DNA of 64,000 bases from a virus. A program made the translations under genes and the position numbers. This document shows positions 30,017 through 45,502 of this stretch, one piece after another. The stretch spans positions 60,443-124,442 of IMG/VR virus record IMGVR_UViG_3300031857_011362; one strand, written 5' to 3'. Position 1 is the stretch's first letter, and each line of letters begins with the position of its first letter. The notes under the pieces were generated by a model that was not told the DNA's origin, made no database searches, and was given only the letters and a program-made list of their open reading frames with translations.

Positions 30017-31375
30017 ATGCTTAAGATTATTAGTTCGCCACCATTTGATGATTATAGTAAAAAACTGTTCTTTCAATTATTCGGTCAAAAGAAAAAATTG
30101 GGTCTGGATAGTGCTAGTTTTATATACTTGTGGACTGGACCATTAACTAATAACAACACCTATTCATACAGCAATTCTATATCGTTTAATACAAACCCTA
30201 CATCATTGCCCAAATTTGTTGATTTTATGTTATCTCATGCACGGATGCTAGCCGGTAAAAAAAGATTTTTTAACTCACGTGATGAAATGTTTTCTTTATA
30301 TCTTGAGTATGTTGGGGTAGATGTTTCACGTGAAATATTTGACCAGTACTATTCTACCTATGTAGAAAGCATCATAGACCGTAGTACAATGGAAGATATG
30401 ATTCAAGAGGCATGCATAAATGACGTTATAGTATTATTTGTCAAAGATCACTTTAGAATAAATTTTAAAAATTCTTGGATTGATCCAATACCCGAACTGG
30501 TTACTTACTTTGCAAATTTGTGTAATTACTTCCCTGATAAAAAATTTATCATTGTTACTAGTTTGGAAAACTTAGATAAAGAACTAAAATCTAGCAATTG
30601 TAAAATAGTGAACATGGGCGGAGATATAACTAATCAGATATCAAGTTATATGAATTTTACCCCTTTGATAGAAAAATCCGCAACTAAGAATTTTATATCA
30701 TTGAACCGAGGAGATAGACCCCATAGGGTGTATCTGGTTTCAAATTTATATGCTAAAAATTTACACAATCACGGGCAGATTAGTTTATTAACCCCGCAGA
30801 ACCCGAATGCAAAACTCAATGAAGCAATTATCTATAACTATAAAAATGACCAAAATTATGAATTATCAAACATTGGTTTCAGTAAGTATGTGGCCGAACA
30901 TAACCATCAGATAGCCGATAGCTATAATATTTACCCTCAGCGTGGTAATGACAATTTACGAAATTTCCAAGATTCTTTACAGAGTAAGTATCTTAATAGT
31001 TATGTGGAATTTGTTTCGGAAACCAGTTTCAATGAAAAGAGCTTTAACATAACGGAAAAAACACTACATTTCATATACGGTTGCAATTATCCTATAATGA
31101 TTTCTAGTCCCGGCGTAGTCAAATTTCTGCGAGAAATGGGAATAGATATGTTTGATGATATAATTGACCATTCATATGATGATATAGAAGATCCTTGTGA
31201 CCGCATAGTCCAGGCTATAAACAAAAATATAAAAATTTTAACTATGGATCTGAATTCTCTACGGAAACAGTGGGAAAATGATAAATACAGAATGGAGCAA
31301 AATATTAAATTTGTCCAGACCAAATTAGCTAAATTCTATCAGGATAGATTTTGGCAACAGATTAAAGGATTATAA
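30017..31375 (+). CDS. Glycosyltransferase-like hypothetical protein
   Basis: LNR..RPHR, FVSET, ITEKT..I, FD.IIDHSYD. Confidence 0.5.
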   Translation: MLKIISSPPFDDYSKKLFFQLFGQKKKLGLDSASFIYLWTGPLTNNNTYSYSNSISFNTNPTSLPKFVDFMLSHARMLAGKKRFFNSRDEMFSLYLEYVGVDVSREIFDQYYSTYVESIIDRSTMEDMIQEACINDVIVLFVKDHFRINFKNSWIDPIPELVTYFANLCNYFPDKKFIIVTSLENLDKELKSSNCKIVNMGGDITNQISSYMNFTPLIEKSATKNFISLNRGDRPHRVYLVSNLYAKNLHNHGQISLLTPQNPNAKLNEAIIYNYKNDQNYELSNIGFSKYVAEHNHQIADSYNIYPQRGNDNLRNFQDSLQSKYLNSYVEFVSETSFNEKSFNITEKTLHFIYGCNYPIMISSPGVVKFLREMGIDMFDDIIDHSYDDIEDPCDRIVQAINKNIKILTMDLNSLRKQWENDKYRMEQNIKFVQTKLAKFYQDRFWQQIKGL

Positions 31376-32984: not shown

Positions 32985-33359
32985 ATGAACAAAGAACAAA
33001 AAAGCGAGTATGCGAAAGAAAGATATAAAAAGAATAGAGAAAGGTTACTAGAGTATCAGAACAAACGATACAACGAAACATTGGATATCTTCCAGCAATG
33101 GAGAAAAACTTTGAAGTGTTGTAGATGTGAGGAGAATGATGTTGCTTGTTTAGAGTTTCATCATAGCGATCCAGAGACAAAGGAAAATAATGTCGTAAGG
33201 ATGGTATCTCGCAGTGTGAAGTCTGTTATCAAAGAACTCAAAAAATGTGTTGTAGTTTGTGCTAATTGTCATCGCAGGATACATGCGTATGACATAAAAA
33301 CAGACCCTAACACCGAGGATCTAGGAACAAGTTTTGAAAATTTTTTGAAAGAAATTTGA
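32985..33359 (+). CDS. HNH endonuclease
   Basis: CCRC..LEFHH..CVVVCANCHRRIH. Confidence 0.85.
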   Translation: MNKEQKSEYAKERYKKNRERLLEYQNKRYNETLDIFQQWRKTLKCCRCEENDVACLEFHHSDPETKENNVVRMVSRSVKSVIKELKKCVVVCANCHRRIHAYDIKTDPNTEDLGTSFENFLKEI

Positions 33360-33384
33360 CAATAAATGGACAAAAAGATACAAT
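33356..33384 (+). promoter_or_regulatory. sigma70-type early promoter (TTGACAATAAATGG family)
   Basis: TTGACA-N17-TACAAT. Confidence 0.8.
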
Positions 33385-33679
33385 ACAAAACTTCTGAAAC
33401 AAAACGTGATTGGTATTCTACTCACACATTGACGAAGGAACAATACGCACAGTTGATACAAAATAAGATCGACCGTGTAAAGTCTTATCAAGAGGCTACC
33501 AAGAAAGCTAACAAGCTAGCAGGTATCACTTGATAGGCAGCGTGAACAGGCAACGAGAGCCGTAATACAGCGCAAAATGTATAGAATGGGCGGACAGGAA
33601 ACATGAACGAGTGGCGATAACACTCTTAGTAAGACTCCTGGGTAGGGTATCAACCCTATCATGTCGTGTAGCAATACAC

Positions 33680-33767
33680 GGCATTCTAAAACATACGTAG
33701 TGAAACACTTTAGCTTACAACGCTATACCCACACGACTCGGGAGTACTAGGTGTGTTTTAGAATGCC
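33680..33767 (+). ncRNA. Stem-closed structured RNA candidate A
   Basis: 17-bp stem GGCATTCTAAAACATAC/GTGTGTTTTAGAATGCC enclosing three small hairpins. Confidence 0.55.
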
Positions 33768-33769
33768 AC

Positions 33770-34345
33770 TTAAGTATTTGGTGTATTATAGATTCTTTCT
33801 ATATATTTTTTTATATTGTATATGTTAACAGGCTCTATGATCTTAGCATTATGTGACCCCAACAGATTATTGTTTAACAAATATTCATAAGTTAATTCTT
33901 CGTCAAATTTTATAGCTAAGTCATTGATTAATTTATCATTTTTGTTTATTATATCGATTGATTTTCTAACCGAATCAGCTAGAAATTTTACTGTATATTT
34001 TTCACCTCGGGCAAGACTATTCTTTGAGTTCCATATTGTTGTCATCTCGGCTACATAGTAGCTAGCAATTTGTTCAATTTTATTTTCTCTGGTCAATTTT
34101 ATTTTATAACAATCGCTGTTTAAAATTTCTTGATAAAGTAAATGTTTATCAATTTGGTCAGGCATAAATTTTACTACAAATGGTTCGTTATTTACAAACA
34201 ACTTTTCTAAAAGATTGTATTCTTCTTCATAAAGATGCGGTTCAGGAAAACATTTGGCTTCATTGTCTTTTGATAATTTGAAAGTGTAGTCACTAGAACC
34301 TGTTCTATAATTTGCCAATAGTAATATACGATTTTTTGTTGTCAT
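33770..34345 (-). CDS. Stf0-like sulfotransferase
   Basis: YRTGSS PSB-like loop, F.EP, KLTREN..QIASY. Confidence 0.65.
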   Translation of the reverse strand: MTTKNRILLLANYRTGSSDYTFKLSKDNEAKCFPEPHLYEEEYNLLEKLFVNNEPFVVKFMPDQIDKHLLYQEILNSDCYKIKLTRENKIEQIASYYVAEMTTIWNSKNSLARGEKYTVKFLADSVRKSIDIINKNDKLINDLAIKFDEELTYEYLLNNNLLGSHNAKIIEPVNIYNIKKYIERIYNTPNT

Positions 34346-34383
34346 TCGATATTTAGTTATTGTCTTTCAACCACGTTAATAAT

Positions 34384-34460
34384 GCGACCTTAGCTCAGAT
34401 GGATAGAGCACCAGGCTACGAACTTGGGGGTCAGGAGTTCGAATCTCTTAGGTCGCACCA
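34384..34460 (+). tRNA. trnR: tRNA-Arg(ACG)
   Basis: Cloverleaf, loop CTACGAA, CCA. Confidence 0.95.
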
Positions 34461-34462
34461 AT

Positions 34463-34537
34463 GGATGTATAACACAGCGGTAGTGTATCTCCTTCATACG
34501 GAGCAGGTCAGTAGTTCAAATCTACTTACATCCACCA
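34463..34537 (+). tRNA. trnM: tRNA-Met(CAT), identity uncertain
   Basis: Cloverleaf, loop TTCATAC, CCA. Confidence 0.85.
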
Positions 34538-34545
34538 AACAATAT

Positions 34546-34622
34546 AGCCTCATAGCTCAGTTGGTTAGAGCACCGTCTTGATAAGGCGGGGGTCCTGTGT
34601 TCGAGTCACAGTGAGGCTACCA
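34546..34622 (+). tRNA. trnI: tRNA-Ile(GAT)
   Basis: Cloverleaf, loop TTGATAA, CCA. Confidence 0.95.
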
Positions 34623-34629
34623 AATTTAT

Positions 34630-34703
34630 TCCCGGATTGTGTAATGGTAGCACAACAGACTTTGACTCTGTTAGCCTAGGTTCGATCCCTAGTCCGGGTG
34701 CCA
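34630..34703 (+). tRNA. trnQ: tRNA-Gln(TTG)
   Basis: Cloverleaf, loop CTTTGAC, CCA. Confidence 0.95.
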
Positions 34704-34705
34704 GT

Positions 34706-34864
34706 TTATGGGATAGACGATAGGTTCGAGTCCCTGTCAATCTAGTCACAGTGGGGTTAACTGTGATGACACTATAGTATGATTGATGGGTGTATAAACT
34801 TGCCTATACGAGACAATCTAACGAGGCTTATTAACAATAAGATAGTTAGGCGCCCAATCTATAA
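34706..34864 (+). ncRNA. Multibranched structured RNA candidate
   Basis: TCAATC/GATTGA, TCACAGT/ACTGTGA, GGGTGT/GCGCCC, GTATA/TATAC, CTAAC/GTTAG stems. Confidence 0.45.
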
Positions 34865-34870
34865 GGAGTT

Positions 34871-35242
34871 ATGATGTTAAAACAATTTACTATTGATGAA
34901 AAATTTATATGTGATGTTACTGTTAGAACTGAATTCGATTTAGTCAAAGATAGAAACAATCCCACATATGATGATCTTATCAAAGTCCTTAAAGGATGGG
35001 ATAAGATGACTAGCACTAGTAACAAAGACCACGATGAATTTACCAAGTTACGTAATCAATTAGAAGAACTGGGTTATATCAAAATTGAACGTGGATGGTG
35101 GAACGGTGACAGAGTATTAAAATCGTTCAAGTTAAACGAATGGACTTTTCGTAAAGGACATAAATTTTCTTGTGCGGCAGCAATGAACAACAGTATTCAT
35201 TGTGCTAGAAAATTCGGATGGAAGACTATTTCATCTTTATAA
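34871..35242 (+). CDS. Hypothetical protein
   Basis: RBS AAGGAG, 123-aa ORF. Confidence 0.65.
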   Translation: MMLKQFTIDEKFICDVTVRTEFDLVKDRNNPTYDDLIKVLKGWDKMTSTSNKDHDEFTKLRNQLEELGYIKIERGWWNGDRVLKSFKLNEWTFRKGHKFSCAAAMNNSIHCARKFGWKTISSL

Positions 35243-35245
35243 TAT

Positions 35246-35321
35246 GGTGTTGGTAGCTCAATGGTAGAGCAACGGATTGTGATTCCGTTGGTTGTGGGTT
35301 CGAGTCCCATCCTTCACCCCA
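35246..35321 (+). tRNA. trnH: tRNA-His(GTG)
   Basis: G-1, C73, loop TTGTGAT, CCA; two U-U mismatches in acceptor stem. Confidence 0.92.
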
Positions 35322-35325
35322 ATAT

Positions 35326-35401
35326 GCAACTTTAGCTGATGTGGTCATAGCGGCGGTCTGAAGAACCGTTGAACGTGGTTCGATCCCACGAGGTTGCACC
35401 A
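35326..35401 (+). tRNA. trnF: tRNA-Phe(GAA)
   Basis: Cloverleaf, loop CTGAAGA, CCA. Confidence 0.93.
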
Positions 35402-35406
35402 GACAT

Positions 35407-35493
35407 GCCCCCATAGACAAATTGGCAAAGTCACTCTCCTCAAAAGGGAGTATCTTAAAGGAAATCTGAGTTCGAATCTCAGTGGGGGCACCA
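35407..35493 (+). tRNA. trnL: tRNA-Leu(CAA)
   Basis: Long variable arm, loop CTCAAAA, CCA. Confidence 0.92.
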
Positions 35494-35497
35494 ATAG

Positions 35498-35526
35498 TTG
35501 ACAACAAACACATTTTGTGTTATGAT
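35498..35526 (+). promoter_or_regulatory. sigma70-type promoter
   Basis: TTGACA-N17-TATGAT. Confidence 0.7.
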
Positions 35527-35533
35527 ATATTAA

Positions 35534-35608
35534 GGGTCTTTAGTTCAATGGATAGAATGCCATGCTTCGAACTTGGAGATGTGGGTTCGATTCCTGCAAG
35601 ACCCGCCA
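35534..35608 (+). tRNA. trnR: tRNA-Arg(TCG)
   Basis: Cloverleaf, loop CTTCGAA, CCA. Confidence 0.88.
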
Positions 35609-35654
35609 ATACGTGTTAAATACTAATAGTGACAAAGCAGAAAAGGAGTACATA

Positions 35655-36215
35655 ATGGCTGTTCTAGCACTAGATATCTCAGGAGTTCCCCGGCAGTGGA
35701 TCTCAAATGATGACGCAATTACCTATAAAGCAAAAGATGCCATCGCATGGTCAATGGGGAATATTGTGGCTAGATATCGCGGTGGTATTCAAAATGACGG
35801 CACATTAAGTTACTTAGAAGCATCTAGTATCATTGCTATCAAAGGTCACGGATTTAATCCATACAAACATGCATGTGTCGCACTAAGTAACAAAACATTG
35901 TTTGGTCGTGATAGACATGTGTGTGCTTACTGTGGTGAACAGTTTCCTAATTACCATATGTTAAGTCGTGACCACATTGTTCCGAAGAGCAAAGGTGGTG
36001 AAAACACTTGGATGAACGTAGTTACCGCATGTAAAGATTGCAACAGTAATAAAGGTCATAAAAGTTTGAAGGAAGTGCGTATGGAATTATTGTATGCACC
36101 TTATGTACCTAATCATTACGAGAATATGATTCTACAACATAGAACAATTCTCGCAGACCAAATGGAATACTTGTTAGCAGGTGTTCCCAAGCATAGTAGA
36201 ATTCTCCTAAGCTAG
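35655..36215 (+). CDS. HNH endonuclease (McrA-like family)
   Basis: RD..VCAYCG..DHIVPKSKGG..W.NVVTAC..CN..KG; RBS AAGGAG. Confidence 0.9.
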   Translation: MAVLALDISGVPRQWISNDDAITYKAKDAIAWSMGNIVARYRGGIQNDGTLSYLEASSIIAIKGHGFNPYKHACVALSNKTLFGRDRHVCAYCGEQFPNYHMLSRDHIVPKSKGGENTWMNVVTACKDCNSNKGHKSLKEVRMELLYAPYVPNHYENMILQHRTILADQMEYLLAGVPKHSRILLS

Positions 36216-36234
36216 AAAGATATCACAATGAGGC

Positions 36235-36274
36235 TTGACAAAAAAGTTTTGTTGTGATATACTCTCTATAAATA
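36235..36274 (+). promoter_or_regulatory. Tandem sigma70 promoter plus T4-like late promoter
   Basis: TTGACA-N17-TATACT (36235-36263) then TATAAATA (36267-36274). Confidence 0.7.
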
Positions 36275-36360
36275 TTCAAGTCAGTTCCGAGATGACATTA
36301 AAAATGTCGGCTACTCAATCGTCAACGGAAAGAGTGTAAGGTCACAGTTGAAAGTTTTTC

Positions 36361-36435
<75 letters not shown>

Positions 36436-36442
36436 AAATTAT

Positions 36443-36518
36443 TCTCCTATAGCTCAGTCGGTAGAGCGTTTGACTGTTAATCAAAATGTCCGTGGTTCGA
36501 GCCCACGTAGGGGAGCCA
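36443..36518 (+). tRNA. trnN: tRNA-Asn(GTT)
   Basis: Cloverleaf, loop CTGTTAA, CCA. Confidence 0.95.
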
Positions 36519-36537
36519 AATTTATAATGGAGTAAGT

Positions 36538-36732
36538 ATGTTAGTAAGTAATAACGCAGGTTATAAATTGTATTGTGAAGTGCGCAAACTTGACGTACAC
36601 CCACAAGACAATCATGTACGTATATTCACCACATATGACTGGTCTAAAAATCCGGAAGCAGAACAAAACAAAATTGAGTTGTTCCTTAGTGACATTGAAC
36701 TTGATGCACTTAGGAAGGCACTTGCATCATGA
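36538..36732 (+). CDS. Hypothetical protein
   Basis: RBS GGAG, 64-aa ORF. Confidence 0.55.
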   Translation: MLVSNNAGYKLYCEVRKLDVHPQDNHVRIFTTYDWSKNPEAEQNKIELFLSDIELDALRKALAS

Positions 36733-37314
36733 TTGGATCATTAACTGCCATTCTTCTAAACTAAAGTGGTAGTCTTCTAAGGTTTCTAACATTTTTGCAA
36801 AAACTATCAATGTTCTTCTATGAGTGGTTAATTCATTTTGACGTTGAGTAATTTTTTCTTCTACTAGGGTTTTTAGTAAATTCTCACCCTCTTTTTTCAT
36901 TTTGATTTTTTGAGCAATGGTGTTTAACTTTTTTATTGTGTTATTACATTCTAGTATGACATTGTTTGCTTGATGTTGTGCCTGATGAATGTCAACTTTC
37001 ATTCTTAAAATCAAATCATCAACATCAGGATTTATATGTTGAGTAAAATGAGTTATCATATTAGACAGTCTAGTGTATACCTCATTGTCAATATTTGTAT
37101 CGTCATAATGTTCACCGGTAGAATCGTAATGGGCACGTTTTGTAGGATCACCTAGTGTTTCATAAGCTAATTTAATTCGTTTGAATTTTTCTTCATTTCC
37201 ACCTGGCCTGTCTGGGTGATGAATTTGTGCTAGAATTCTATATTTTTGTTTGATTTCTTCGGAAGTACAATTTTTAGGTAATTCTAGTTCATCATATAAG
37301 GTAGGTTGTTCCAT
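36727..37314 (-). CDS. J-domain (DnaJ-like) protein
   Basis: LY..LEL..EEIK..YR.LA..HHPDR..F..I..AYE.L.DP. Confidence 0.88.
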   Translation of the reverse strand: MEQPTLYDELELPKNCTSEEIKQKYRILAQIHHPDRPGGNEEKFKRIKLAYETLGDPTKRAHYDSTGEHYDDTNIDNEVYTRLSNMITHFTQHINPDVDDLILRMKVDIHQAQHQANNVILECNNTIKKLNTIAQKIKMKKEGENLLKTLVEEKITQRQNELTTHRRTLIVFAKMLETLEDYHFSLEEWQLMIQS

Positions 37315-37326
37315 ACGAATATTTAT

Positions 37327-37401
37327 CTGGGGTTAATATAATGGATAATATAGTTGCCTTCTAAGCAATCAATACAGGTTCGATTCCTGTACCCCGGACC
37401 A
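37327..37401 (+). tRNA. trnR: tRNA-Arg(TCT)
   Basis: Cloverleaf, loop CTTCTAA, CCA. Confidence 0.92.
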
Positions 37402-37405
37402 GAAT

Positions 37406-37434
37406 TTGACAATAAATGGATTTGGCTATACAAT
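37406..37434 (+). promoter_or_regulatory. sigma70-type early promoter (TTGACAATAAATGG family)
   Basis: TTGACA-N17-TACAAT. Confidence 0.8.
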
Positions 37435-37462
37435 AGCATCTTAATTACTTGAAAGGTACTTT

Positions 37463-37996
37463 ATGTTAGATAAAATTCAATCTTTAATTGACGCTGGAAA
37501 CACTGTAGTTTATCAATGCATCAGATACAATTATGCTTTTGTAATTGAACGTGTTATTACACCTGATGACAATGATCTATCTATTGGGTTTAAACATCGT
37601 GGCACTTTTACTAGGCCCGAGCAGTCCGCGGGCAAACAAAGTGTTGGCACTATGAAATCAGTGGCAAAAATGTTCTTAGTTCAAACTGGCGAAAAAGAGT
37701 ATGAAGTATTTGATACTGAAAAAAATTATCGTAGCGGCAAACGCATTGAAAAATGTGCTGACTATGATAAAGTTCGTGCTTTATATGAGACACAAGTTGT
37801 TCACACATTCACATTCAAACACAATGTGGGCCGTAAAGTAATTGATCGTTCAATGTCATATATATGTCTGCCTGATACAAAAATCCCAGACCCACTGAAT
37901 GAAAGCAATTTTACGTCAAACTATAATATCAATGATATCATTGATTTTAAGTATCTGGGCACTAAGTCTATCATTGAGCATGAGAACGAAATTTGA
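37463..37996 (+). CDS. Hypothetical protein flanked by identical promoter repeats
   Basis: 177-aa ORF, RBS AAGG. Confidence 0.65.
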   Translation: MLDKIQSLIDAGNTVVYQCIRYNYAFVIERVITPDDNDLSIGFKHRGTFTRPEQSAGKQSVGTMKSVAKMFLVQTGEKEYEVFDTEKNYRSGKRIEKCADYDKVRALYETQVVHTFTFKHNVGRKVIDRSMSYICLPDTKIPDPLNESNFTSNYNINDIIDFKYLGTKSIIEHENEI

Positions 37997-38021
37997 CAAT
38001 AAATGGAGCCTATGATACAAT
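37993..38021 (+). promoter_or_regulatory. sigma70-type early promoter (TTGACAATAAATGG family)
   Basis: TTGACA-N17-TACAAT. Confidence 0.8.
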
Positions 38022-38085
38022 CATAGCATGAGTTGAGAAAAAGAGTTAGTTGGTGAAGTTAGTGATAACGACACAAACAAAGTTC

Positions 38086-38114
38086 TTGACAATAAATGGT
38101 AAAGGTTTTATAAT
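38086..38114 (+). promoter_or_regulatory. sigma70-type early promoter (TTGACAATAAATGG family)
   Basis: TTGACA-N17-TATAAT perfect consensus. Confidence 0.85.
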
Positions 38115-38153
38115 AGACACATAGCAACAAACGATAGAGTCAGTTGTAAAACA

Positions 38154-38169
38154 GTTCTTTAAAATTTAG
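38154..38169 (+). promoter_or_regulatory. boxA-like antitermination motif
   Basis: GTTCTTTAAAATTTAG downstream of a promoter. Confidence 0.55.
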
Positions 38170-38199
38170 AATTCATATATCCCTGTTAAGTTCAGGGCT

Positions 38200-38412
38200 C
38201 TATATGAAAATACATTAAGGTCACCTAATCCGTTAGGTAGGTCTATGAGGTCAGCCGGTGGACGACGCCGGGTCGCATAGGATACAAGAAGCGTACCGAC
38301 AATAGTAATATTGTTTAACGTGACGGGAAGTTAGGCAGTAATGACAGAAACAACGATCCAGTAGACGGTACTGGTAGATACAGTTTAAGTTCCTTAATGT
38401 TTTTTCATATAG
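38200..38412 (+). ncRNA. Stem-closed structured RNA candidate B
   Basis: 20/21-bp closing stem; internal ACCTAA/TTAGGT, CTATG/CATAG, CCGG/CCGG, ACAAT/ATTGT, CCAGTA/TACTGG. Confidence 0.6.
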
Positions 38413-38415
38413 TGT

Positions 38416-38570
38416 AAAACTATTATTAAGTGTTATCAAGGTATCGTGTATGGACCCATACACTATTCGGGCCTAACTGTGCGAGGAACAGGTCCTGATA
38501 TAACTGCTATTCGCTTGTCAGTGCTAGCTACATTTTTGACAAATTGGTAGATAATACTTAATAATATTTT
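38416..38570 (+). ncRNA. Stem-closed structured RNA candidate C
   Basis: 17+4-bp closing stem; internal GTGTATG/CATACAC, GGGCCT/AGGTCC, TTGTCA/TGACAA. Confidence 0.55.
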
Positions 38571-38573
38571 TAT

Positions 38574-38649
38574 GCTCGGTTCATCTAGCGGCCTAGGATA
38601 GTGCCCTTTCACGGCATTCACACGGGTTCAAATCCCGTACCGAGCTCCA
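38574..38649 (+). tRNA. trnE: tRNA-Glu(TTC)
   Basis: Cloverleaf, loop CTTTCAC, CCA. Confidence 0.94.
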
Positions 38650-38924
38650 GTATCCCGTTACTACTTTCGTTAAAGTAGCGTTTGATTAGCGATAGAGATC
38701 CGGTGGCAGAAAACCGTAAGCGCAAGCGATGAATCACATCCTGCAGGCTCTGATAGGCAGAATCTCAACTGCACACAGACTTTGAATAAATGGAGATGGA
38801 CAGAGTAACTGCTCAATTAAGGGCTTGTGTGGAAACAAGTAGCTTATACTAATTTTTTGAGTTACATCGCCCTGATACTTCTCTCAGTAATGAGACACTA
38901 GGTCTTGCAACCGTAACTCATCTT

Positions 38925-39010
38925 GGAGATGTAGGAAAATTGGTAACCCCAGGAGACTGTAAATCTTCCGCCTTATGGCACTACTGGTTCAACTCCAGTC
39001 GTCTCCACCA
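38925..39010 (+). tRNA. trnY: tRNA-Tyr(GTA)
   Basis: Long variable arm, loop CTGTAAA, CCA. Confidence 0.94.
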
Positions 39011-39017
39011 AGAATAT

Positions 39018-39094
39018 GCACCGTTAGCGCAGTTGGTTAGCGCACCGCCCTGTCACGGCGGGGGTCAGGGGTTCGAGTCCCCTACGGTGCGCCA
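39018..39094 (+). tRNA. trnD: tRNA-Asp(GTC)
   Basis: Cloverleaf, loop CTGTCAC, CCA. Confidence 0.95.
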
Positions 39095-39097
39095 AGT

Positions 39098-39303
39098 TTT
39101 GTTAGAGTGTTAGCAAGAGAAAGACACACTACTATGGATTCTTCGAAGGTCCTTGTAGTGTAGAGCAGAGAGCGGGGTCAGTACCCGTCTAAGAGCATAA
39201 TGGAATGCACTGGTTAAGTATCCCAAGTGACGTACCGAGTCCCGGTCGACTTTATTACACGGGTGAATGATGTCTATAACTATGGAGATATTACTTTAAC
39301 AAA
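39098..39303 (+). ncRNA. Stem-closed structured RNA candidate D
   Basis: 12-bp closing stem TTTGTTAGAGTG/TACTTTAACAAA; internal ACACTAC/GTAGTGT with CTTCGAAG hairpin, GCGGG/CCCGT. Confidence 0.5.
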
Positions 39304-39311
39304 TTTAATAT

Positions 39312-39399
39312 GGAGTATTGGCCGAGCGGTTAAGGCAATGGATTGCTAATCCATCACTGGGCAACCGGTGGGTAGGTTCGATTCCTACATACTCCGCCA
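39312..39399 (+). tRNA. trnS: tRNA-Ser(GCT)
   Basis: Long variable arm, loop TTGCTAA, G73, CCA. Confidence 0.95.
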
Positions 39400-39403
39400 G
39401 AAC

Positions 39404-40194
39404 GTTCTGAGTGTCTCCGGATACTGTGACCCGCAAAGTAGTAGTATGACCCGTTAGGCATAAATAATAGTATGAAAGAATACTATGTTTATGCCTATTT
39501 GAGAGAAGACGGAACTCCTTACTATATTGGTAAAGGTAAAGAAAGACGTGCCTGGGAGCAACATCGTTCTAACGGAAAAGGAGTTCATACTCCATCTGAT
39601 TATAAACGAATAGTGTTATTATATGAAGATTTAGATGAACCCGCCGCATTTAATTTAGAAACTGAATTGATTTCAAAGTATGGAAGACAAGATTTAGGAA
39701 CAGGTATATTAAAAAATATGACCAATGGTGGCGAAGGATCTGCAGGAACTTCACCAGAAACTAATTGGAAAAAAGGTAGTTCGAAAAGAAGTAAAACGAC
39801 TAGTAGTAAAACTAGACAAAAAATAAGCAAAGCAAATAAAAATCGTGATTACCCAAACAATCATACCGAGGAAGTTAGACAAAAGTTAAGCGAGACAACA
39901 AAGAAATCTTGGGAAACAAGACCGAGAACAATGTCCGAAGAACAAAAGAAAAAGATATCAGACGCCGCAAAAGAACGCTGGCGTTTGAGGAAGAACCCGC
40001 CCAGGTAACGCTGGGCTAGTCTGATCCAGACGAAGGAGAAGTAAGTTCGTAACTTACGGGTGGTAGTCTTTAAACCCAAAGGCCGCTGGCAATGCGAGAA
40101 CGGTCCCTGTCGGGAAGCGGGTGGAAGGAGTGTGTGATGGGTATGATAGCGTCATATCTTTCTGTACTATAATTACCGCCGGGGGATGCAGAGC
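39404..40194 (+). ncRNA. Large ornate RNA candidate enclosing a GIY-YIG ORF
   Basis: 5' GTTCTG-A-GTGTCTCCGG pairs with 3' CCGGGGGATGC-AGAGC; many GC-rich hairpins at 39995-40194. Confidence 0.5.
39472..40008 (+). CDS. GIY-YIG homing endonuclease with NUMOD3-like repeats
   Basis: YVYAY..TPYYIGKG, LETELI, NMTNGGEG, repeated S.E.KKKIS; own CATAAATA late motif. Confidence 0.88.
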   Translation: MKEYYVYAYLREDGTPYYIGKGKERRAWEQHRSNGKGVHTPSDYKRIVLLYEDLDEPAAFNLETELISKYGRQDLGTGILKNMTNGGEGSAGTSPETNWKKGSSKRSKTTSSKTRQKISKANKNRDYPNNHTEEVRQKLSETTKKSWETRPRTMSEEQKKKISDAAKERWRLRKNPPR

Positions 40195-40278
40195 ATATTG
40201 AAGCACATTAAAGATAGGGTAGTAGCGGTTCATATGAACCTTAGTACATACCGAGGTAGTTAGTGTGTTTCAATATGC
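40193..40278 (+). ncRNA. Stem-closed structured RNA candidate F
   Basis: 18-bp stem GCATATTGAAGCACATTA/TAGTGTGTTTCAATATGC. Confidence 0.55.
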
Positions 40279-40284
40279 TTTTAT

Positions 40285-40360
40285 GTAGGTGTGTACTGAA
40301 AGGCTAGGTAGCGGATTGCAAATCCGTGCTATGCAGGTTCGAATCCTGTCACCTACTCCA
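40285..40360 (+). tRNA. trnC: tRNA-Cys(GCA)
   Basis: Cloverleaf, loop TTGCAAA, U73, CCA. Confidence 0.93.
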
Positions 40361-40463
40361 AATTTTTTAACAAAGGAAACGATATGAAGCGCAGTAAGCG
40401 ATAGTGTCGTCATAGACTTCCGTAGGTCTATGATTGGCACGTAAAATCAAACATACGACTTAT

Positions 40464-40540
40464 GGAAGTATAGCTCAACTGGCTAGAGCAACCGGCTTTT
40501 AACCGGTAGGTTCAGGGTTCAAGTCCCTGTGCTTCTACCA
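40464..40540 (+). tRNA. trnK: tRNA-Lys(TTT)
   Basis: Cloverleaf, loop CTTTTAA, CCA. Confidence 0.95.
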
Positions 40541-40615
40541 TATAAAAACATATTTGACTAAACTCGGGTTCATCCGTGATAGTAATTGCTACTATATCAA
40601 GTGTGTTTCTATATG
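40539..40615 (+). ncRNA. Stem-closed structured RNA candidate G
   Basis: 16/17-bp stem CATATAAAAACATATTT/AAGTGTGTTTCTATATG enclosing two hairpins. Confidence 0.5.
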
Positions 40616-40629
40616 GTATAAATATTTAC

Positions 40630-40818
40630 ATGATAGTTCAATCGATTCATAGCTCTTGGGATATGGTGTACAACCAATATCGCAATACAGAGTTTAAAAC
40701 TCTTGTAGACCCAGTGTCTCATAAGAAAATAATAGAGATTGTTCAATACCTTTATGATAAGACGGGTCAAATAGAACCCACTAATACTAAAGGAAACAAT
40801 GTTGATACCAAAGCGTAA
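40630..40818 (+). CDS. Small hypothetical protein
   Basis: 62-aa ORF directly after TATAAATA motif. Confidence 0.45.
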   Translation: MIVQSIHSSWDMVYNQYRNTEFKTLVDPVSHKKIIEIVQYLYDKTGQIEPTNTKGNNVDTKA

Positions 40819-40821
40819 TAT

Positions 40822-40897
40822 ATCTCGGTAGCTCAATTGGCAGAGCACTGGTCTCCAAAACCAGGGGTTGTAAGTTCGAGGCTTACCCGGGATGCCA
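40822..40897 (+). tRNA. trnW: tRNA-Trp(CCA)
   Basis: Cloverleaf, loop CTCCAAA, G73, CCA. Confidence 0.94.
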
Positions 40898-40905
40898 AAA
40901 ATATT

Positions 40906-40998
40906 GCCCCTGTAGTTTAATGGTTAAAACGGCGGATTTATATCCCGTAAGCAACAGATAATTGGTTCATGTGGGTTCGATTCCCTCCAGGGGTACCA
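40906..40998 (+). tRNA. Atypical 93-nt tRNA with TAT anticodon (Ile?) and 22-nt variable region
   Basis: Acceptor GCCCCTG/CAGGGGT, D arm GTTT/AAAC, loop TTTATAT, T loop TTCGATT, CCA. Confidence 0.75.
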
Positions 40999-41004
40999 AA
41001 CAGT

Positions 41005-41033
41005 TTGACAACATGTAGCAAGTGCTATATAAT
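41005..41033 (+). promoter_or_regulatory. sigma70-type promoter
   Basis: TTGACA-N17-TATAAT. Confidence 0.8.
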
Positions 41034-41044
41034 AAAAGAATGTT

Positions 41045-41121
41045 GCGCTTGTAGCTCAGTTGGTTAGAGCAGAGGACTCATAATCCTTTGGTCGCGGGTT
41101 CAAGTCCCTCCGAGCGCACCA
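41045..41121 (+). tRNA. trnI: tRNA(CAT), probably Ile2 (lysidine type)
   Basis: Loop CTCATAA, C4:G69, overall resemblance to ileX-type tRNAs. Confidence 0.8.
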
Positions 41122-41124
41122 ATT

Positions 41125-41287
41125 ATAATGAGCGTATGAATTCCATTGCATCATTGACATTAGTGAAAAACTTCATTGTCAATTCGTGATTATAAATATC
41201 ACGTGAAAAGATGTAACAGGCGTCATCACTCATTGATAAGTGAATGTGCAGTCCTGATCTAGTGATAGCGTCATACGTGTGCATTAT
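41125..41287 (+). ncRNA. Multibranched structured RNA candidate
   Basis: ATAATG..CGTATGA / TCATACG..CATTAT closure; TGCATC/GATGTA junction with ATTGACA/TGTCAAT and CGTGAT/ATCACG. Confidence 0.5.
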
Positions 41288-41297
41288 GTATTTATAT

Positions 41298-41371
41298 GCG
41301 GGGTTCGTATAGTGGTAATACCTTAGCCTTCCAAGCTAATGCTGACAGTTCGATTCTGTTACCCCGCTCCA
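41298..41371 (+). tRNA. trnG: tRNA-Gly(TCC)
   Basis: Cloverleaf, loop CTTCCAA, U73, CCA. Confidence 0.95.
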
Positions 41372-41379
41372 ATAACAAG

Positions 41380-41435
41380 GCCCAGACCTCTGTGATAACT
41401 AACCGGTAAATGGTTATCATACGTCTGAGTTTTTC
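41380..41435 (+). terminator. Extended hairpin with U-tail
   Basis: CAGAC/GTCTG and TGATAAC/GTTATCA stems followed by T run. Confidence 0.45.
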
Positions 41436-41449
41436 TTACCCTAATATAG

Positions 41450-41498
41450 TTGACAGATATGTATTTCTCTGTTATACTATAGTCTGTTCTTTAAAAAG
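41450..41498 (+). promoter_or_regulatory. sigma70 promoter followed by boxA-like motif
   Basis: TTGACA-N17-TATACT then TGTTCTTTAAAAAG (41485-41498). Confidence 0.7.
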
Positions 41499-41503
41499 TT
41501 AAT

Positions 41504-41587
41504 GCGCAAGTGGTGGAATGGTATACACGATGGTCTTAGAAGCCATTGCCGAAGGGATTGAGAGTTCGAGTCTCTCCTTGCGCACCA
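41504..41587 (+). tRNA. trnL: tRNA-Leu(TAG)
   Basis: Long variable arm, loop CTTAGAA, CCA. Confidence 0.94.
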
Positions 41588-41592
41588 ATATT

Positions 41593-41757
41593 ATGATAAC
41601 AGAATACAAAGTTATAAACGCTACATATGAAGAATTTCATAAAGAAGTAGCAAAGTTATTGTCTGAAGGCTGGCAACCGCAAGGTGGTGTTAGTGTAGTT
41701 CGTAGTTGGTATAGTAATGATCCAACAACTTATTACTTTCAGGCATTTGTTAGATGA
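41593..41757 (+). CDS. Small hypothetical protein (DUF1737-like)
   Basis: V..LL.EGW.PQGGVS..YFQA motif. Confidence 0.55.
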   Translation: MITEYKVINATYEEFHKEVAKLLSEGWQPQGGVSVVRSWYSNDPTTYYFQAFVR

Positions 41758-41807
41758 TTTTAACTGAAAATTTCGTCTACCGCATAAATACATCATAGGA
41801 GACTATT

Positions 41808-42410
41808 ATGTATTGTGATTATGGATGCGGTCAAGAATCATCTTTCAAATTGAAGAATGGTAAAAATTGTTGTGCTACGAGAACAGCAAGTTGCCCTGAA
41901 CAAAAAAGAAAAAATTCAGAAGCAACAAAGAAAGTTTATGATGACGGTAAGAGATTACCGGCAGCTCTGGTATATGAAAATTTATCAGAAGAAGTTAAAA
42001 AACGAATGAATTGGAATAAGGGAAACTTTTCTAATACATTGTTTGTTTATAATGGTGTAGGTAATCATAAAGCTGTGTTGATTCAAGAAAAAGGTCACCA
42101 GTGTGAAGATTGTAGATTGACTGAATGGAAATCTAAACCTATACCGTTAGAGTTAGAACATGTTGATGGTGACAACAAAAATAACACAAGAGAAAATCTT
42201 AAGTTGTTATGTTGTAATTGTCATGCTTTGACTCCAACTTGGAGAGGTAGAAATATTAATTCAGGTAAAGTTAAAGTAAGTGACCAAGAACTATTGACAG
42301 CATTGCAAGAATGTAGTAATATACGTCAAGCATTGCAGAAAGTGGGGTTATCTCCGAAAGGTGGTAACTACCAAAGAGCAAATAAATTAAATGCGACCTT
42401 GGTGAAATAG
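41808..42410 (+). CDS. HNH endonuclease overlapping tRNA-Leu 5' end
   Basis: CEDC..LELEHVDGD..NN..ENL..LCCNCHA; RBS AGGAG; CATAAATA upstream. Confidence 0.9.
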   Translation: MYCDYGCGQESSFKLKNGKNCCATRTASCPEQKRKNSEATKKVYDDGKRLPAALVYENLSEEVKKRMNWNKGNFSNTLFVYNGVGNHKAVLIQEKGHQCEDCRLTEWKSKPIPLELEHVDGDNKNNTRENLKLLCCNCHALTPTWRGRNINSGKVKVSDQELLTALQECSNIRQALQKVGLSPKGGNYQRANKLNATLVK

Positions 42411-42690
42411 GTAGACACAAGAGACTTGAGAGTAAAATTTGAGTGCCCTAGTGGAAATGCTAGGAGTAGAACCCGTCAAATTCGGTGAAGGCTGTAAAAT
42501 GCTAATACCGAGCGAAGCCTAAGTAGAAATACTTTTGAACGTGTAGAGACTAGACGGCGGGCATCTAAAGCAGTAATGCTATGATGAAGGTATAGTCCAG
42601 ACCACAAAACTGTAAAGGTAGTGAAAACTATAGTGGTAAGAAAATCTCTCGCCGAAAGGCATCCCGGTTCGATTCCGGGAGGTCGCACCA
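42393..42690 (+). tRNA. trnL: tRNA-Leu(TAA) interrupted by a group I intron (exons 42393-42427, 42641-42690)
   Basis: Spliced arm AGAGA-CTT^AAAA-TCTCT, acceptor GCGACCT/AGGTCGC, long variable arm, CCA. Confidence 0.92.
42428..42640 (+). mobile_element. Group I self-splicing intron (trnL-UAA/IC3-like), 213 nt, no ORF
   Basis: P1 CTT/GAG with U-G, P2 CCTAG/CTAGG, P3 CCGTC/GACGG, P4 TTCGGT/ACCGAG, P7 GACTA/TAGTC, terminal G. Confidence 0.92.
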
Positions 42691-42696
42691 GAATTT

Positions 42697-42770
42697 GGGG
42701 GATTGATGTAATGGGAGCCTGGGACCTTTGCAAGGTTTTCGTGGGAGTTCGATTCTCCCATCCTCCACCA
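42697..42770 (+). tRNA. trnA: tRNA-Ala(TGC)
   Basis: G3:U70 pair, loop TTTGCAA, CCA. Confidence 0.92.
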
Positions 42771-42801
42771 AATACGATAAATACTGCATAGAGGAAACAA
42801 T

Positions 42802-42975
42802 ATGCAATTAAAAGTCTTTATCAATGATAAACTGTATAAAACGGTAACAGTACCGGGAGAAACATATAATCCTAATTTCATCTGGCCTGAAATAGAAGCT
42901 GACAGAGATTCAGGATTATTGACAACATTTAATCTAAACAAAGGTTTATCAATTCGCTACGAAAAAGTAGCATAA
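42802..42975 (+). CDS. Small hypothetical protein
   Basis: RBS GAGG, 57 aa, GATAAATA upstream. Confidence 0.5.
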   Translation: MQLKVFINDKLYKTVTVPGETYNPNFIWPEIEADRDSGLLTTFNLNKGLSIRYEKVA

Positions 42976-42982
42976 CAGTTTA

Positions 42983-43058
42983 CGCGGGGAGGGCCCGGTC
43001 ACCACTTCGGTCTCATAAGCCAGGAGCATCGGCAGTTCAAATCTGTCCCCCGCATCCA
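42983..43058 (+). tRNA. trnM: Divergent initiator-like tRNA-fMet(CAT)
   Basis: CGCGGGG/CCCCGCA with C1:A72 mismatch, loop CTCATAA, aberrant D arm, CCA. Confidence 0.75.
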
Positions 43059-43072
43059 AATAGGAAAATTAT

Positions 43073-43222
43073 ATGCCAATGTATGAAACGACAGTTCGCA
43101 CACCACAGGGTGAAATTAAAGATAAAGTCTTTGCACCAAATGTACAAGAAGCTAAAAAGCTACTTGAACAACGTCATGGTCCACGAAACGTTCCATATAT
43201 ACCGCATATAATACCAAGTTAA
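43073..43222 (+). CDS. Small hypothetical protein
   Basis: RBS AGGA, 49 aa. Confidence 0.5.
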   Translation: MPMYETTVRTPQGEIKDKVFAPNVQEAKKLLEQRHGPRNVPYIPHIIPS

Positions 43223-43224
43223 TT

Positions 43225-43301
43225 CGGAGTGTAGAACAGCCCGGTAGTTCGCATCGTTTGGGACGATGAGGTCCAAGGTTCGAATCCTTGTACTCCGACC
43301 A
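43225..43301 (+). tRNA. trnP: tRNA-Pro(TGG)
   Basis: Cloverleaf, loop TTTGGGA, CCA. Confidence 0.95.
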
Positions 43302-43324
43302 ATTTTTTAAAAAGGAAAAATAGT

Positions 43325-43486
43325 ATGACATGTAGAGGTTATGACCCAAAAGCCGTTAAAATCGGTAAGTTAGTAAAGATAGCAGGATCTTCGATTCTTG
43401 ATCCACACAAACGTGGTGATTTTTTTCGTAGCTATACTAAGGTTGCGCAAGAAAATTTGCGTTCCGGTGGTAGAAAAGAAAAGTAA
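43325..43486 (+). CDS. Small basic hypothetical protein
   Basis: RBS AAGGA, 53 aa. Confidence 0.5.
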   Translation: MTCRGYDPKAVKIGKLVKIAGSSILDPHKRGDFFRSYTKVAQENLRSGGRKEK

Positions 43487-43496
43487 TTTTTAAAAG

Positions 43497-43571
43497 GCAT
43501 CGTTAGCTCAGGGGTAGAGCGTCTCCTTTACACGGAGAGGGTCCGCGGTTCGAAACCGTGACGATGTACCA
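43497..43571 (+). tRNA. trnV: tRNA-Val(TAC)
   Basis: Cloverleaf, loop TTTACAC, CCA. Confidence 0.95.
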
Positions 43572-43577
43572 AATACA

Positions 43578-44741: not shown

Positions 44742-44743
44742 TC

Positions 44744-45049
44744 ATGAGCTACCAAATTACAATAACTTTCAAAAAAACTACAGAGACTCCGGAAAATGCA
44801 TTCAGTACTATTCCGATTCGTGAACCTAATGAAAATGTTACACAAGCACAAATTACTGCATTAGATAGTGCTTATCCGCACCAATTTGAAATGCGTATGA
44901 TACAGGATCAACTAACGATCACTTATACATATAACTCAAAAGAAGATTATGACGCAGTAGTTAATCATGCTGTTACTCAGGATTTACGTACAAGACGATT
45001 AGCTTGGGCGGAACTCAATAAAGTTACAATCTCTACAAGAGAAGTGTAA
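44744..45049 (+). CDS. Hypothetical protein
   Basis: RBS AAGGA, 101 aa. Confidence 0.6.
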   Translation: MSYQITITFKKTTETPENAFSTIPIREPNENVTQAQITALDSAYPHQFEMRMIQDQLTITYTYNSKEDYDAVVNHAVTQDLRTRRLAWAELNKVTISTREV

Positions 45050-45055
45050 TTAATT

Positions 45056-45131
45056 GCGGCTGTAGCTCAGTTGGTAGAGCATCACGTTGCCAACGTGAAT
45101 GTCACCGGTTCGAACCCGGTTAGCCGCTCCA
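45056..45131 (+). tRNA. trnG: tRNA-Gly(GCC)
   Basis: Cloverleaf, loop TTGCCAA, U73, CCA. Confidence 0.95.
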
Positions 45132-45156
45132 AATTTTTTAACCAAAGAAAGAAACT

Positions 45157-45390
45157 ATGACAGATACAAGAATACAATATTCAAGTGAAGCAGCCGTTAC
45201 CATGGTCGAAAACAGATTCGACCTAGTACTCATTGCCTCAACAAGAGTTAGAGAATTAAAGAGTGGCCACAAATCTACACTTGGTAGTAAGAGTGGACCA
45301 GTAACTACGGCACTTCAAGAAATTGAACAAGGTCTAATAGGTCGTGAGTATCTAAAACGAGTTAGAGAAAACGCAAGAGCCGGAAAATAA
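45157..45390 (+). CDS. rpoZ: RNA polymerase omega subunit homolog
   Basis: NRFDLVLIAS.R.REL..G..V.TALQEIE.G. Confidence 0.88.
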   Translation: MTDTRIQYSSEAAVTMVENRFDLVLIASTRVRELKSGHKSTLGSKSGPVTTALQEIEQGLIGREYLKRVRENARAGK

Positions 45391-45395
45391 TATAT

Positions 45396-45485
45396 GGAAG
45401 ATAGGCTGCATGGCGCGGACACGGTCTTGAAAACCGTCCCACTTATGATGAATAGGTGACAGTTCGATTCTGTTATCTTCCTCCA
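45396..45485 (+). tRNA. trnS: tRNA-Ser(TGA), atypical D arm
   Basis: GGAAGAT/ATCTTCC, loop CTTGAAA, long variable arm, CCA. Confidence 0.85.
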
Positions 45486-45502
45486 AATTCTATTAATGAA
45501 AA

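Follow-up and report, generated by a model that had tools for sequence, protein, structure and literature searches.

The 64,000-nucleotide (nt) stretch of viral DNA analysed here (the window) makes up the latter half of IMG/VR record IMGVR_UViG_3300031857_011362, which is 124 kb long; its CheckV completeness of 35% at that length indicates a jumbo phage. Interleaved with the transfer RNA (tRNA) genes of the window are intergenic units in which a long stem closes around a folded core. Several of these units belong to a widespread family of phage RNA cassettes, in which one stem of about 20 base pairs (bp), ACCAUAU-W-R-AARCACAUU / AGUGUGUUUYW-AUAUGGU, encloses a cargo that differs from unit to unit. 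The family was found in more than 120 IMG/VR loci with at least 137 cargo types. Its stem often takes in the 3′ end of the upstream tRNA, bears the marks of selection at the RNA level, and is consistent in length and in published sequence rules with a ribonuclease III (RNase III) type of cutting, as a preliminary description of the window had proposed. Judged from sequence, we lean towards the reading that the units are processing adaptors for host RNase III, which would separate tRNAs from one another and release capped small RNAs.

Six units, A, B, C, D, F and G, had been listed in the preliminary description as closed by long terminal stems, and all six were recovered in place on the + strand (Table 1). 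The long stem holds for five of them and fails for D, which is closed by only 11 bp. When every ungapped long-range stem with a loop of 20-300 nt was scored over the whole 124-kb record, A, B, C, F and G were the five top-scoring stems (18.5-22.25), all within 7 kb; D fell below the threshold of the scan. Folded as single sequences, A forms a stem of 17+5 bp (z = -7.7), F one of 22-24 bp (z = -8.5), G one of 9+12 bp around one A.C mismatch (z = -6.1) and B one of 11+9 bp (z = -4.0); C has z = -3.9, and D folds weakly alone (z = -1.3). The common 3′-arm sequence of A, F and G, GTGTGTTT, is present in all three, and the 5′-arm motif AA(A/G)(C/T)A(C/T)A occurs in A, B, F and G. As a trait of the whole set, the carrier stem was not supported: A, F and G share it, as does B by homology, whereas C and D each have a different stem and are conserved RNAs in their own right. 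The homolog of B in locus L120 (80% identity) keeps the canonical 3′ arm AGUGUGUUUUCAUAU. The cargo of F is carried by eight homologs and that of G by three. Unit A lies at the edge of the array, where it ends a non-coding transcript from the promoter at 33356 and has no flush tRNA. Labels such as L002, L012, L035 and L120 denote related loci that were compared; L156 is phage T5 (AY543070).

The family was collected from IMG/VR with a degenerate two-arm pattern allowing a gap of 30-60 nt, and the number of loci is a lower bound. Counts of family units, cargos and placements were taken from the matches listed (about 120 contigs) and are therefore lower bounds on the family as well. Stem positions are numbered from 0, the A of the upstream tRNA's CCA, and are based on 186 unique units. 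The conserved helix spans -3 to +15/16, that is 19-20 bp, and beyond it pairing drops to background. From -3 inwards the outer pairs are A-U, C-G, C-G, A-U, U-A, A-U, U-A and W-W′. Position +5 follows, with A.C in 86, G-C in 59 and A-U in 28 of the 186 units, and after it come A-U, A-U, A-U or G.U, C-G, A-U, C-G, A-U, U.G, U-A and N-N′. The U.G at +13 is present in 137/186 units and the U-A at +14 in 168/186. Two sites take three states, U.G/U-A/C-G at +13 and A.C/G-C/A-U at +5. Part of this conservation was imposed by the search pattern itself, in which -3 to -1, +14 and +15 were free. In the window, F has G-C at +5, G.U at +8 and U.G at +13, and G has A.C at +5 and U.G at +11 and +13.

Pairing in the shared stem was tested on an alignment of 60 sequences, one unit per cargo type, from which a covariance model, R1, was also built (consensus arms uaCCAUAUAaAAACACAUU ... 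AGUGUGUUUcUAUAUGGua around variable cargo). Paired cells made up 91.8%, against 85.1% in shuffles (0/500 reached the observed value) and 29-56% in slid controls, and 11 of the 20 pairs showed double-sided changes. Compensatory changes were also found in the core of C and in the inner helices of D. Each unit matched by R1 scored better on the + strand than on the - strand: G with 61.2 bits (E = 2e-10) against 42.7 bits, F with 57.4 bits (E = 1e-9) against 37.3 bits, and A, marginally, with 27.7 bits (E = 0.002) against 22.9 bits. The + strand is therefore ahead by 5-20 bits: some 18.5 bits in G, 20 bits in F and 5 bits in A. Over the 64-kb window nothing but G, F and A scored; B goes unmatched because its 181-nt cargo is too long for the model. 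The inference from G-U pairs to RNA-level selection was borne out, since G-U outnumbers A-C by 10:1 on the + strand in the five stems (one-sided binomial p ~0.006), where a DNA palindrome decaying symmetrically would give about 1:1. Together, the covariation, the excess of G-U over A-C and the higher + strand scores argue for selection on the RNA.

The stem is anchored on tRNA ends. In 111 units AUAU opens with the very A that closes the CCA of the upstream tRNA, and in 54 the next tRNA begins one base past the stem (both among the matches listed). Where the upstream tRNA is flush and no tRNA follows, the 3′ flank is even so GG(U) in 87% of cases, and variants of the ACU|AGU type at the tRNA end and 3′ flank covary. 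These two features indicate that the duplex deliberately takes in the tRNA's ACCA. A motif-free test gave the same picture: a stem of at least 18 nt starts at ACCA in 151/1856 tRNAs, against 13/2000 random starts. About a third of these ACCA-started stems have other stem sequences, mostly around larger cargos. The abutment of units and tRNAs noted in the window also held. Unit G begins in the ACCA of tRNA-Lys (40536, with the tRNA ending at 40540), so that its first five bases, UACCA, are the 3′ end of that tRNA; tRNA-Cys starts 3 nt past F, C runs into tRNA-Glu, and D lies between tRNA-Asp and tRNA-Ser.

The family follows tRNA arrays and their strand. Among the matches listed, 115/120 loci have at least three tRNAs, 114/150 family matches lie within 15 nt of a tRNA and on its strand, and the 3′ arm GTGTGTTTYWATAT occurs in 140 copies on the tRNA strand against 6 on the other. 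The same two-arm pattern in 596 Gb of prokaryote genomes returned 33 stretches, of which 4 were real; these sit on three short contigs of metagenome-assembled genomes with 9-21 tRNAs, probably binned phage DNA, and the remaining stretches were AT-rich chance matches or an unrelated repeat. Searches of 50,697 GenBank phage records with the island and with unit G alone (megablast/blastn) gave only tRNA or chance-level arm matches. One 23-nt arm match, in a 735-kb uncultured phage, was dismissed as chance, having neither tRNAs nearby nor a covariance model match. Absence from the GenBank phages, together with prokaryote genomes nearly free of the motif, indicates that the family is specific to uncultured phages. 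Full-text literature searches returned no description of it.

Cargos turn over within this constant frame. By cargo, the 186 units sort into 137 clusters (among the matches listed), and 109 of these clusters have a single member. The mean cargo is 48 nt long and has 49% GC, compared with 40% across the family loci, which agrees with the GC-richer cores first reported. At the site of unit A, loci L120 and L035 have flanks 81-82% identical and the same stem around unrelated cargos of 31 and 47 nt. The L120 cassette after tRNA-Lys has the stem of unit G and an unrelated cargo. Loci L002 and L012 have flanks 92% and 87% identical around unrelated cargos of 65 and 34 nt. The same cargo is also found beside different tRNAs. 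A T-arm motif adjoins the 3′ arm in 12 of the 137 cargo types, against 1.9 expected, and in sequence such cargos resemble tRNAs whose "acceptor" helix has 20 bp. Canonical T-arm cargos (GGUUCGAAUCC-like) were seen in L002, L003, L029, L064, L066, L096, L101 and others. A comparison of the cargo with the phage's own genome revealed no antisense targets, the matches being cassettes, homologs and three chance-level matches of 15-17 nt.

Units C and D are RNA families separate from the shared-stem family. Homologs of C occur in 18 loci, and in ten of them, aligned, 23 of the 33 predicted pairs show compensatory changes. The closing helix of C is 19-26 bp long in every homolog and has at least four unrelated sequences; as its length is kept despite replacement of its sequence, what is conserved is a length of about two helical turns. 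In the conserved helix of C, at 38533-38545, TTGACA is followed 18 nt on by AATAAT, an 11/12 promoter match just upstream of tRNA-Glu; TTGACAAAT is kept in most C homologs, and RNA helix and promoter may overlap. Homologs of D were found in 20 loci (blastn). Across five aligned homologs, 10 inner-helix pairs show compensatory changes and the closing stem is invariant, the 11-bp UUUGUUAGAGU/ACUUUAACAAA being kept in five relatives. The relatives of D contain a T-arm-like hairpin, GGGUUCGAnUCCC.

RNase III offers a specific reading of the shared stem. The ideal substrate of this enzyme has 22 bp, and cellular substrates usually have at most 20 bp and one target site (PMC3867540). For the E. coli enzyme the optimal distal box is U-A followed by U.G, and the proximal box has G-C at its first position (pb1), A-U at pb3 and W both at pb2 and at pb4, the last of which adjoins the scissile bond (PMC1540722). 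A G-C pair at pb4 lowers cleavage in E. coli with binding unaffected, and the natural phage T7 site R1.1 has U.C there (PMC1540722). Mismatches at an RNase III site can restrict cutting to one strand (PMC3867540, PMC1540722). In the window, the helices of F (22 bp), G (21 bp) and C (23-26 bp) fit the length rule, and F and G both have the UA/UG distal box. Read from its loop, the upper stem of R1.1 (taken from the T7 genome) runs C-G, U-A, U.G, A-U, C-G, U.G, G-C, G-C, A-U, A-U and then a non-Watson-Crick pair; read from the cargo, the family stem runs N-N′, U-A, U.G, A-U, C-G, A-U, C-G, A-U/G.U, A-U, A-U and then A.C/G-C/A-U. Six of ten pairs agree, as does the helix defect; the differences lie at pb1 and at two pairs in the middle. 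With both stems in one 11-bp register, the distal box, the next two pairs, pb2, pb3 and the helix defect at pb4 coincide with R1.1, and pb2 (+7) and pb3 (+6) are A-U in nearly all 186 units. Family pairing stops 1-2 bp past the distal box, as in the minimal R1.1 substrate.

By this analogy the units would act as RNA-level processing cassettes in polycistronic tRNA and small-RNA transcripts, in which the flanks of a cargo form a duplex of about 20 bp around it. In G, F, A and the diverged B, the duplex would run from the discriminator and CCA of the upstream tRNA to, or near, the 5′ end of the next tRNA. Host RNase III would bind this single-site helix and cut near its centre, beside the defect at +5; the register predicts one cut 5′ of +5 and, on the other arm, one 2 nt past the partner of +5. 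For G the predicted cuts are at 40544/40545 and 40611/40612, and for F at 40199/40200 and 40273/40274. The upstream tRNA would be left with a trailer of about 4 nt (UAUA or UAUU) for exonucleases to trim, and the downstream RNA with a short leader, at least about 6 nt long, for RNase P to remove; the cargo would come away as a small RNA whose cap is an 11-bp stem ending in a 2-nt 3′ overhang. A search for RNase III (PF14622) found none in the 35%-complete record or in four near-complete related phages, so the enzyme would be the host's. Constant in sequence, the stem would serve as a portable adaptor, and cargos would be exchanged among cassettes and phages, probably by recombination in the arms. 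The sequences themselves establish the structures and their conservation, selection on the RNA strand, placement flush with tRNAs, turnover of cargo and the fit to published RNase III rules; the cleavage, its enzyme and its cut sites, the mechanism of exchange and any function of the cargos are inferred.

Several observations weigh against this reading. Unit A has C-G and then a mismatch where the UA/UG box would stand, B has U-A, U-A, and D's 11-bp stem is too short for RNase III. At pb1 (+8) the family has A-U or G.U instead of the preferred G-C, and about a third of the stems, F included, have at +5 (pb4) the G-C that is a cleavage antideterminant in E. coli. The rules applied are those of E. 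coli RNase III, and those of this phage's host may differ. The stem sequence is also stricter than RNase III is known to need, which could reflect a binding protein or copy-paste spread. Finally, cargo folding is no more stable than that of controls (mean z -0.51 vs -0.39, p = 0.14), so that many of the cargos may be filler.

Going further than adaptor function, one may tentatively picture the stem as a universal RNA "socket", an RNase III-gated adaptor with which phages would express, cap and swap hundreds of small RNAs whose cargos are under arms-race selection; we regard this as possible and clearly more speculative than processing itself. Recombination in the arms would exchange cargos from cassette to cassette and among phages infecting the same cell, making the units an RNA counterpart of gene cassettes in tRNA operons. 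Cargos, the tRNA-like ones included, could for example be decoys or inhibitors of host defences that target tRNAs or sense RNA.

Three other readings were weighed against processing by RNase III. The first takes the stems as protective clamps or insulators whose duplex stays uncut: the units would be freed by RNase P together with normal 3′ processing, and the stem would shield against exonucleases and keep cargos from misfolding with tRNAs. Flush tRNA ends would allow RNase P alone to set the 3′ ends, the T5 stable RNAs beside tRNAs keep long closing stems in their annotated mature forms, and the pb4 G-C in a third of stems would disfavour cleavage. Yet the ACCA of the upstream tRNA lies inside the duplex, so that some endonucleolytic cut within the 5′ arm is needed for a free CCA end; the roughly 20-22 bp of helix that unit C keeps through full replacement of its sequence are more than stability requires; and a simple clamp gives no role to the UA/UG box, to its spacing or to the conserved central mismatch. 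We consider this reading unlikely.

We see a similarly small chance that the stem is a site for a dedicated protein other than RNase III, of phage or host (for example a nuclease specific for a double-stranded RNA sequence, a modification enzyme or a chaperone), or a decoy for RNase III or for a sensor of double-stranded RNA. The near-invariant sequence across unrelated cargos, chiefly in the 3′ arm GUGUGUUUC, exceeds any known need of RNase III and speaks for such a protein, and stems with G-C at pb4 would bind yet resist cleavage in E. coli. On the other side, C-type cassettes in the same arrays have the same length and quite different sequences, which favours shape over sequence, and no candidate protein emerged. 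Neither RNase III nor TROVE/Ro60 (PF05731) was found in the 35%-complete record or the four near-complete relatives. Compared with Pfam and PHROGs, the open reading frames (ORFs) of the island gave HNH, GIY-YIG/NUMOD3, DnaJ or no family, and no RNA-binding candidate; the neighbouring protein encoded at 37463-37996 has no relatives in IMG/VR.

That the units are DNA elements, either like miniature inverted-repeat transposable elements or recombination hot spots in the AT-rich spacers after tRNA genes, with the RNA hairpins a by-product, is improbable: terminal inverted repeats of constant sequence around a variable interior, the same cargo by different tRNAs and its replacement at syntenic sites, a self-complementary outer ATAT that leaves room for a 2-4 bp target duplication, tRNA spacers in the arrays that often end in ATAT or TTAT, and the endonuclease genes of the island (three HNH, one GIY-YIG-like) that favour recombination would all suit it, but orientation follows the tRNAs (140 vs 6 among the matches listed), G.U is kept on the transcribed strand only, with the + strand scoring 5-20 bits higher, pairing runs with covariation past ATAT into ACCA/UGGU, no transposase is present, and the motif is confined to tRNA arrays and not scattered in genomes.

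Known RNA classes did not account for the units. Rfam 15, searched over 33000-46500 at the gathering threshold and at E ≤ 5, returned no family on A-G, in line with the preliminary description; apart from the tRNAs and one group I intron, it gave only hits of chance level that overlap tRNAs or coding sequence. Nor were A-G called as tRNA by ARAGORN or RF00005. Sub-threshold matches to Y RNA/YrlA (RF02553) fall on tRNAs only, and that class was rejected. Integron attC-like, CRISPR-repeat-like and retron-like identities were dropped, as the arms flank the cargo in inverted orientation, direct repeats are lacking, and genes for an integrase, a Cas protein or a reverse transcriptase are absent.

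Four lake metatranscriptome runs contain up to 48% of the island's sampled words; these runs are contigs, without starts, ends, strand or level, and they speak neither for nor against discrete RNAs. They do point to a lake as the origin of the phage, which the metadata of the record do not give. Contigs that stop at 38354-38361 in B and low depth over G were not counted as evidence. Illumina adapter stands exactly at 39117 and 39280, inside D, and at 38792 in contigs of three of the RNA runs; the adapter sites hint at frequent fragment ends, possibly RNA ends, about 9-13 nt inside the closing stem of D, a hint too weak to use.

The earlier statement that the units fit no class was too strong in view of several precedents: T7 R sites, RNase III stalks of ribosomal RNA (rRNA) operons and the stable RNAs of T5. 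Like the family stem, T7 R1.1 is a phage-encoded hairpin in a polycistronic transcript, present in several same-sequence copies per genome, with a U-A, U.G box, then A-U and C-G, A-U at pb2 and pb3 and a non-Watson-Crick pair by the predicted scissile bond. The T7 sites, in contrast, part mRNAs, have a small loop and are proven to be cleaved; in the present stems cleavage is a prediction, their "loop" is a cargo of 30-180 nt, their helix starts from the tRNA CCA, pb1 differs, and a single stem sequence recurs in well over a hundred phage contigs with at least 137 cargo types.

In rRNA operons, the sequences flanking 16S and 23S rRNA pair into long stalks that RNase III cleaves, with spacer tRNAs alongside. 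These stalks (reviewed in PMC3867540 and PMC8708148) resemble the cassettes in that the flanks of a stable RNA pair over at least about 20 bp and are cut to free the enclosed RNA from a tRNA-bearing transcript. The cassettes differ in their small cargo (30-200 nt), which is diverse and can be exchanged, and in a stem that is constant, portable and flush with tRNA ends.

Phage T5 has eight annotated "stable RNAs with unknown functions" (RNAIII, RNAI, RNA2H, RNAIV, RNA1-3 and RNAX), which are, like the cassettes, small non-tRNA RNAs among phage tRNAs and HNH genes. When folded, some are closed by stems formed from their own ends: RNAIII by 16 bp, flush with tRNA-His, RNA2H by about 19 bp and RNAIV by about 12 bp. 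They differ in having no shared constant stem and no sequence similarity to the family, and R1 found no match better than E = 0.95 in the 30 kb of T5 that hold all the stable RNAs. The stem of T5 RNAIII (30284-30389), CAAUUGAAAAUUCG / CGAGUUUUCAAUUG, has AUUGAA / UUUCAAU in common with the type-2 stem of unit F; the registers differ and there is no covariance model match. In the tRNA cluster of phage T4, RNA C and RNA D (species 1 and 2) are likewise small, stable RNAs that are transcribed and processed together with the tRNAs and have paired ends and no assigned function, but they are two fixed genes and are not known to have a shared carrier stem or cargo diversity. In murid gammaherpesvirus 68, tRNA-like units are followed by pre-miRNA hairpins that are freed by tRNA 3′ processing. 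Here again viral stem-loops of about 60-80 nt come right after tRNA-type units and tRNA processing helps to free small RNAs; that system is, however, a eukaryotic one, relying on RNase Z and Dicer, and is not known to have a constant stem sequence. T5 is thus a precedent, though an unexplained one, for the architecture; the constant portable stem with hundreds of cargos has no known precedent.

The island in which the units lie contains 28 tRNA genes, every one on the + strand, across 34384-45485 (ARAGORN), interspersed with sigma-70-type consensus promoters, three HNH genes, one GIY-YIG-like gene and two DnaJ-domain genes (Table 1). The HNH and GIY-YIG genes are likely drivers of cassette recombination; the T5 tRNA region has such genes likewise.

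Table 1. Positions of the units and of neighbouring features in the window
Feature	Position	Strand	Description
Unit A	33679..33768	+	Family-type cassette; variant stem GGCAUUCUAAAACAUAC / GUGUGUUUUAGAAUGCC; 54-nt cargo
Unit B	38200..38412	+	181-nt structured cargo; 20-bp stem with one bulge; diverged family stem AUAUGAAAAUACAUU / AAUGUUUUUUCAUAU
Unit C	38411..38576	+	Core of about 110 nt; closing stem of 23-26 bp, outside the shared sequence family
Unit D	39098..39303	+	About 206 nt; 11-bp closing stem; fills the gap between tRNA-Asp and tRNA-Ser
Unit F	40190..40281	+	Family cassette; type-2 stem AUAUUGAAGCACAUU / AGUGUGUUUCAAUAU; 54-nt cargo
Unit G	40536..40618	+	Family cassette; type-1 stem UACCAUAUAAAAACAUAUU / AGUGUGUUUCUAUAUGGUA; 47-nt cargo
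tRNA-Glu	38574..38649	+	ARAGORN, Rfam; directly 3′ of unit C
tRNA-Asp	39018..39094	+	ARAGORN, Rfam; directly 5′ of unit D
tRNA-Ser(GCU)	39312..39399	+	ARAGORN, Rfam; directly 3′ of unit D
tRNA-Cys	40285..40360	+	ARAGORN, Rfam; directly 3′ of unit F
tRNA-Lys(UUU)	40464..40540	+	ARAGORN, Rfam; discriminator and CCA paired into the stem of unit G
Sigma-70-type promoter	33356..33384	+	TTGACA-17-TACAAT; 11/12 consensus match; 5′ of the non-coding stretch ending in unit A
Two tandem consensus promoters	37993-38021, 38086-38114	+	11/12 and 12/12 matches; 5′ of units B, C and tRNA-Glu
HNH genes (three)	32985-33359, 35655-36215, 41808-42410		Inside or beside the 12-kb RNA island
GIY-YIG/NUMOD3-like endonuclease gene	39472-40008		Inside or beside the 12-kb RNA island

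Further conserved RNAs lie in the same island. Between tRNA-Glu and tRNA-Tyr, positions 38650-38924 hold a structured non-tRNA RNA with homologs in 34 loci (82-92% identity) and no Rfam match; bins here have the top summed word depth, all organisms pooled, in contigs of two of the four lake RNA runs. A structured RNA conserved in 24 loci is interrupted by the GIY-YIG-like ORF, its two parts lying at 39400-39471 and 40009-40192. One RNA-run contig links 39435 to 40058 via 24 other letters, so that relatives carry this RNA without the endonuclease gene. Rfam matches a group I intron at 42424-42615 (57.4 bits), in the intergenic region 42393-42690, where ARAGORN calls no tRNA; the HNH gene 41808-42410 lies directly upstream, and L120 has a copy 90% identical. 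From the promoter to unit A, 33392-33679 is non-coding, conserved in 11 loci at up to 85% identity and, from its sequence, probably another structured RNA gene. Conserved intergenic RNAs are also present at 40361-40463, which ends in a 13-bp hairpin right before tRNA-Lys, and at 34704-34870, with homologs in 17 and 7 loci, respectively.

Phage tRNA arrays are usually annotated as tRNAs and junk spacers. Here the spacers are a large family of phage-specific RNA modules, and the window contains several separate conserved RNAs besides, C and D among them. If the stems are RNase III sites, they would explain how dense arrays of 20-35 tRNAs with almost no spacer mature in giant phages, and if the cargos are functional, they would form a large unexplored reservoir of phage small RNAs with cassette-like exchange. 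The stem could also be used as a compact design to release defined RNAs from polycistronic transcripts. The family also provides a much larger comparative set for asking what the non-tRNA stable RNAs in the tRNA regions of T4 and T5 do, a question now 50 years old.

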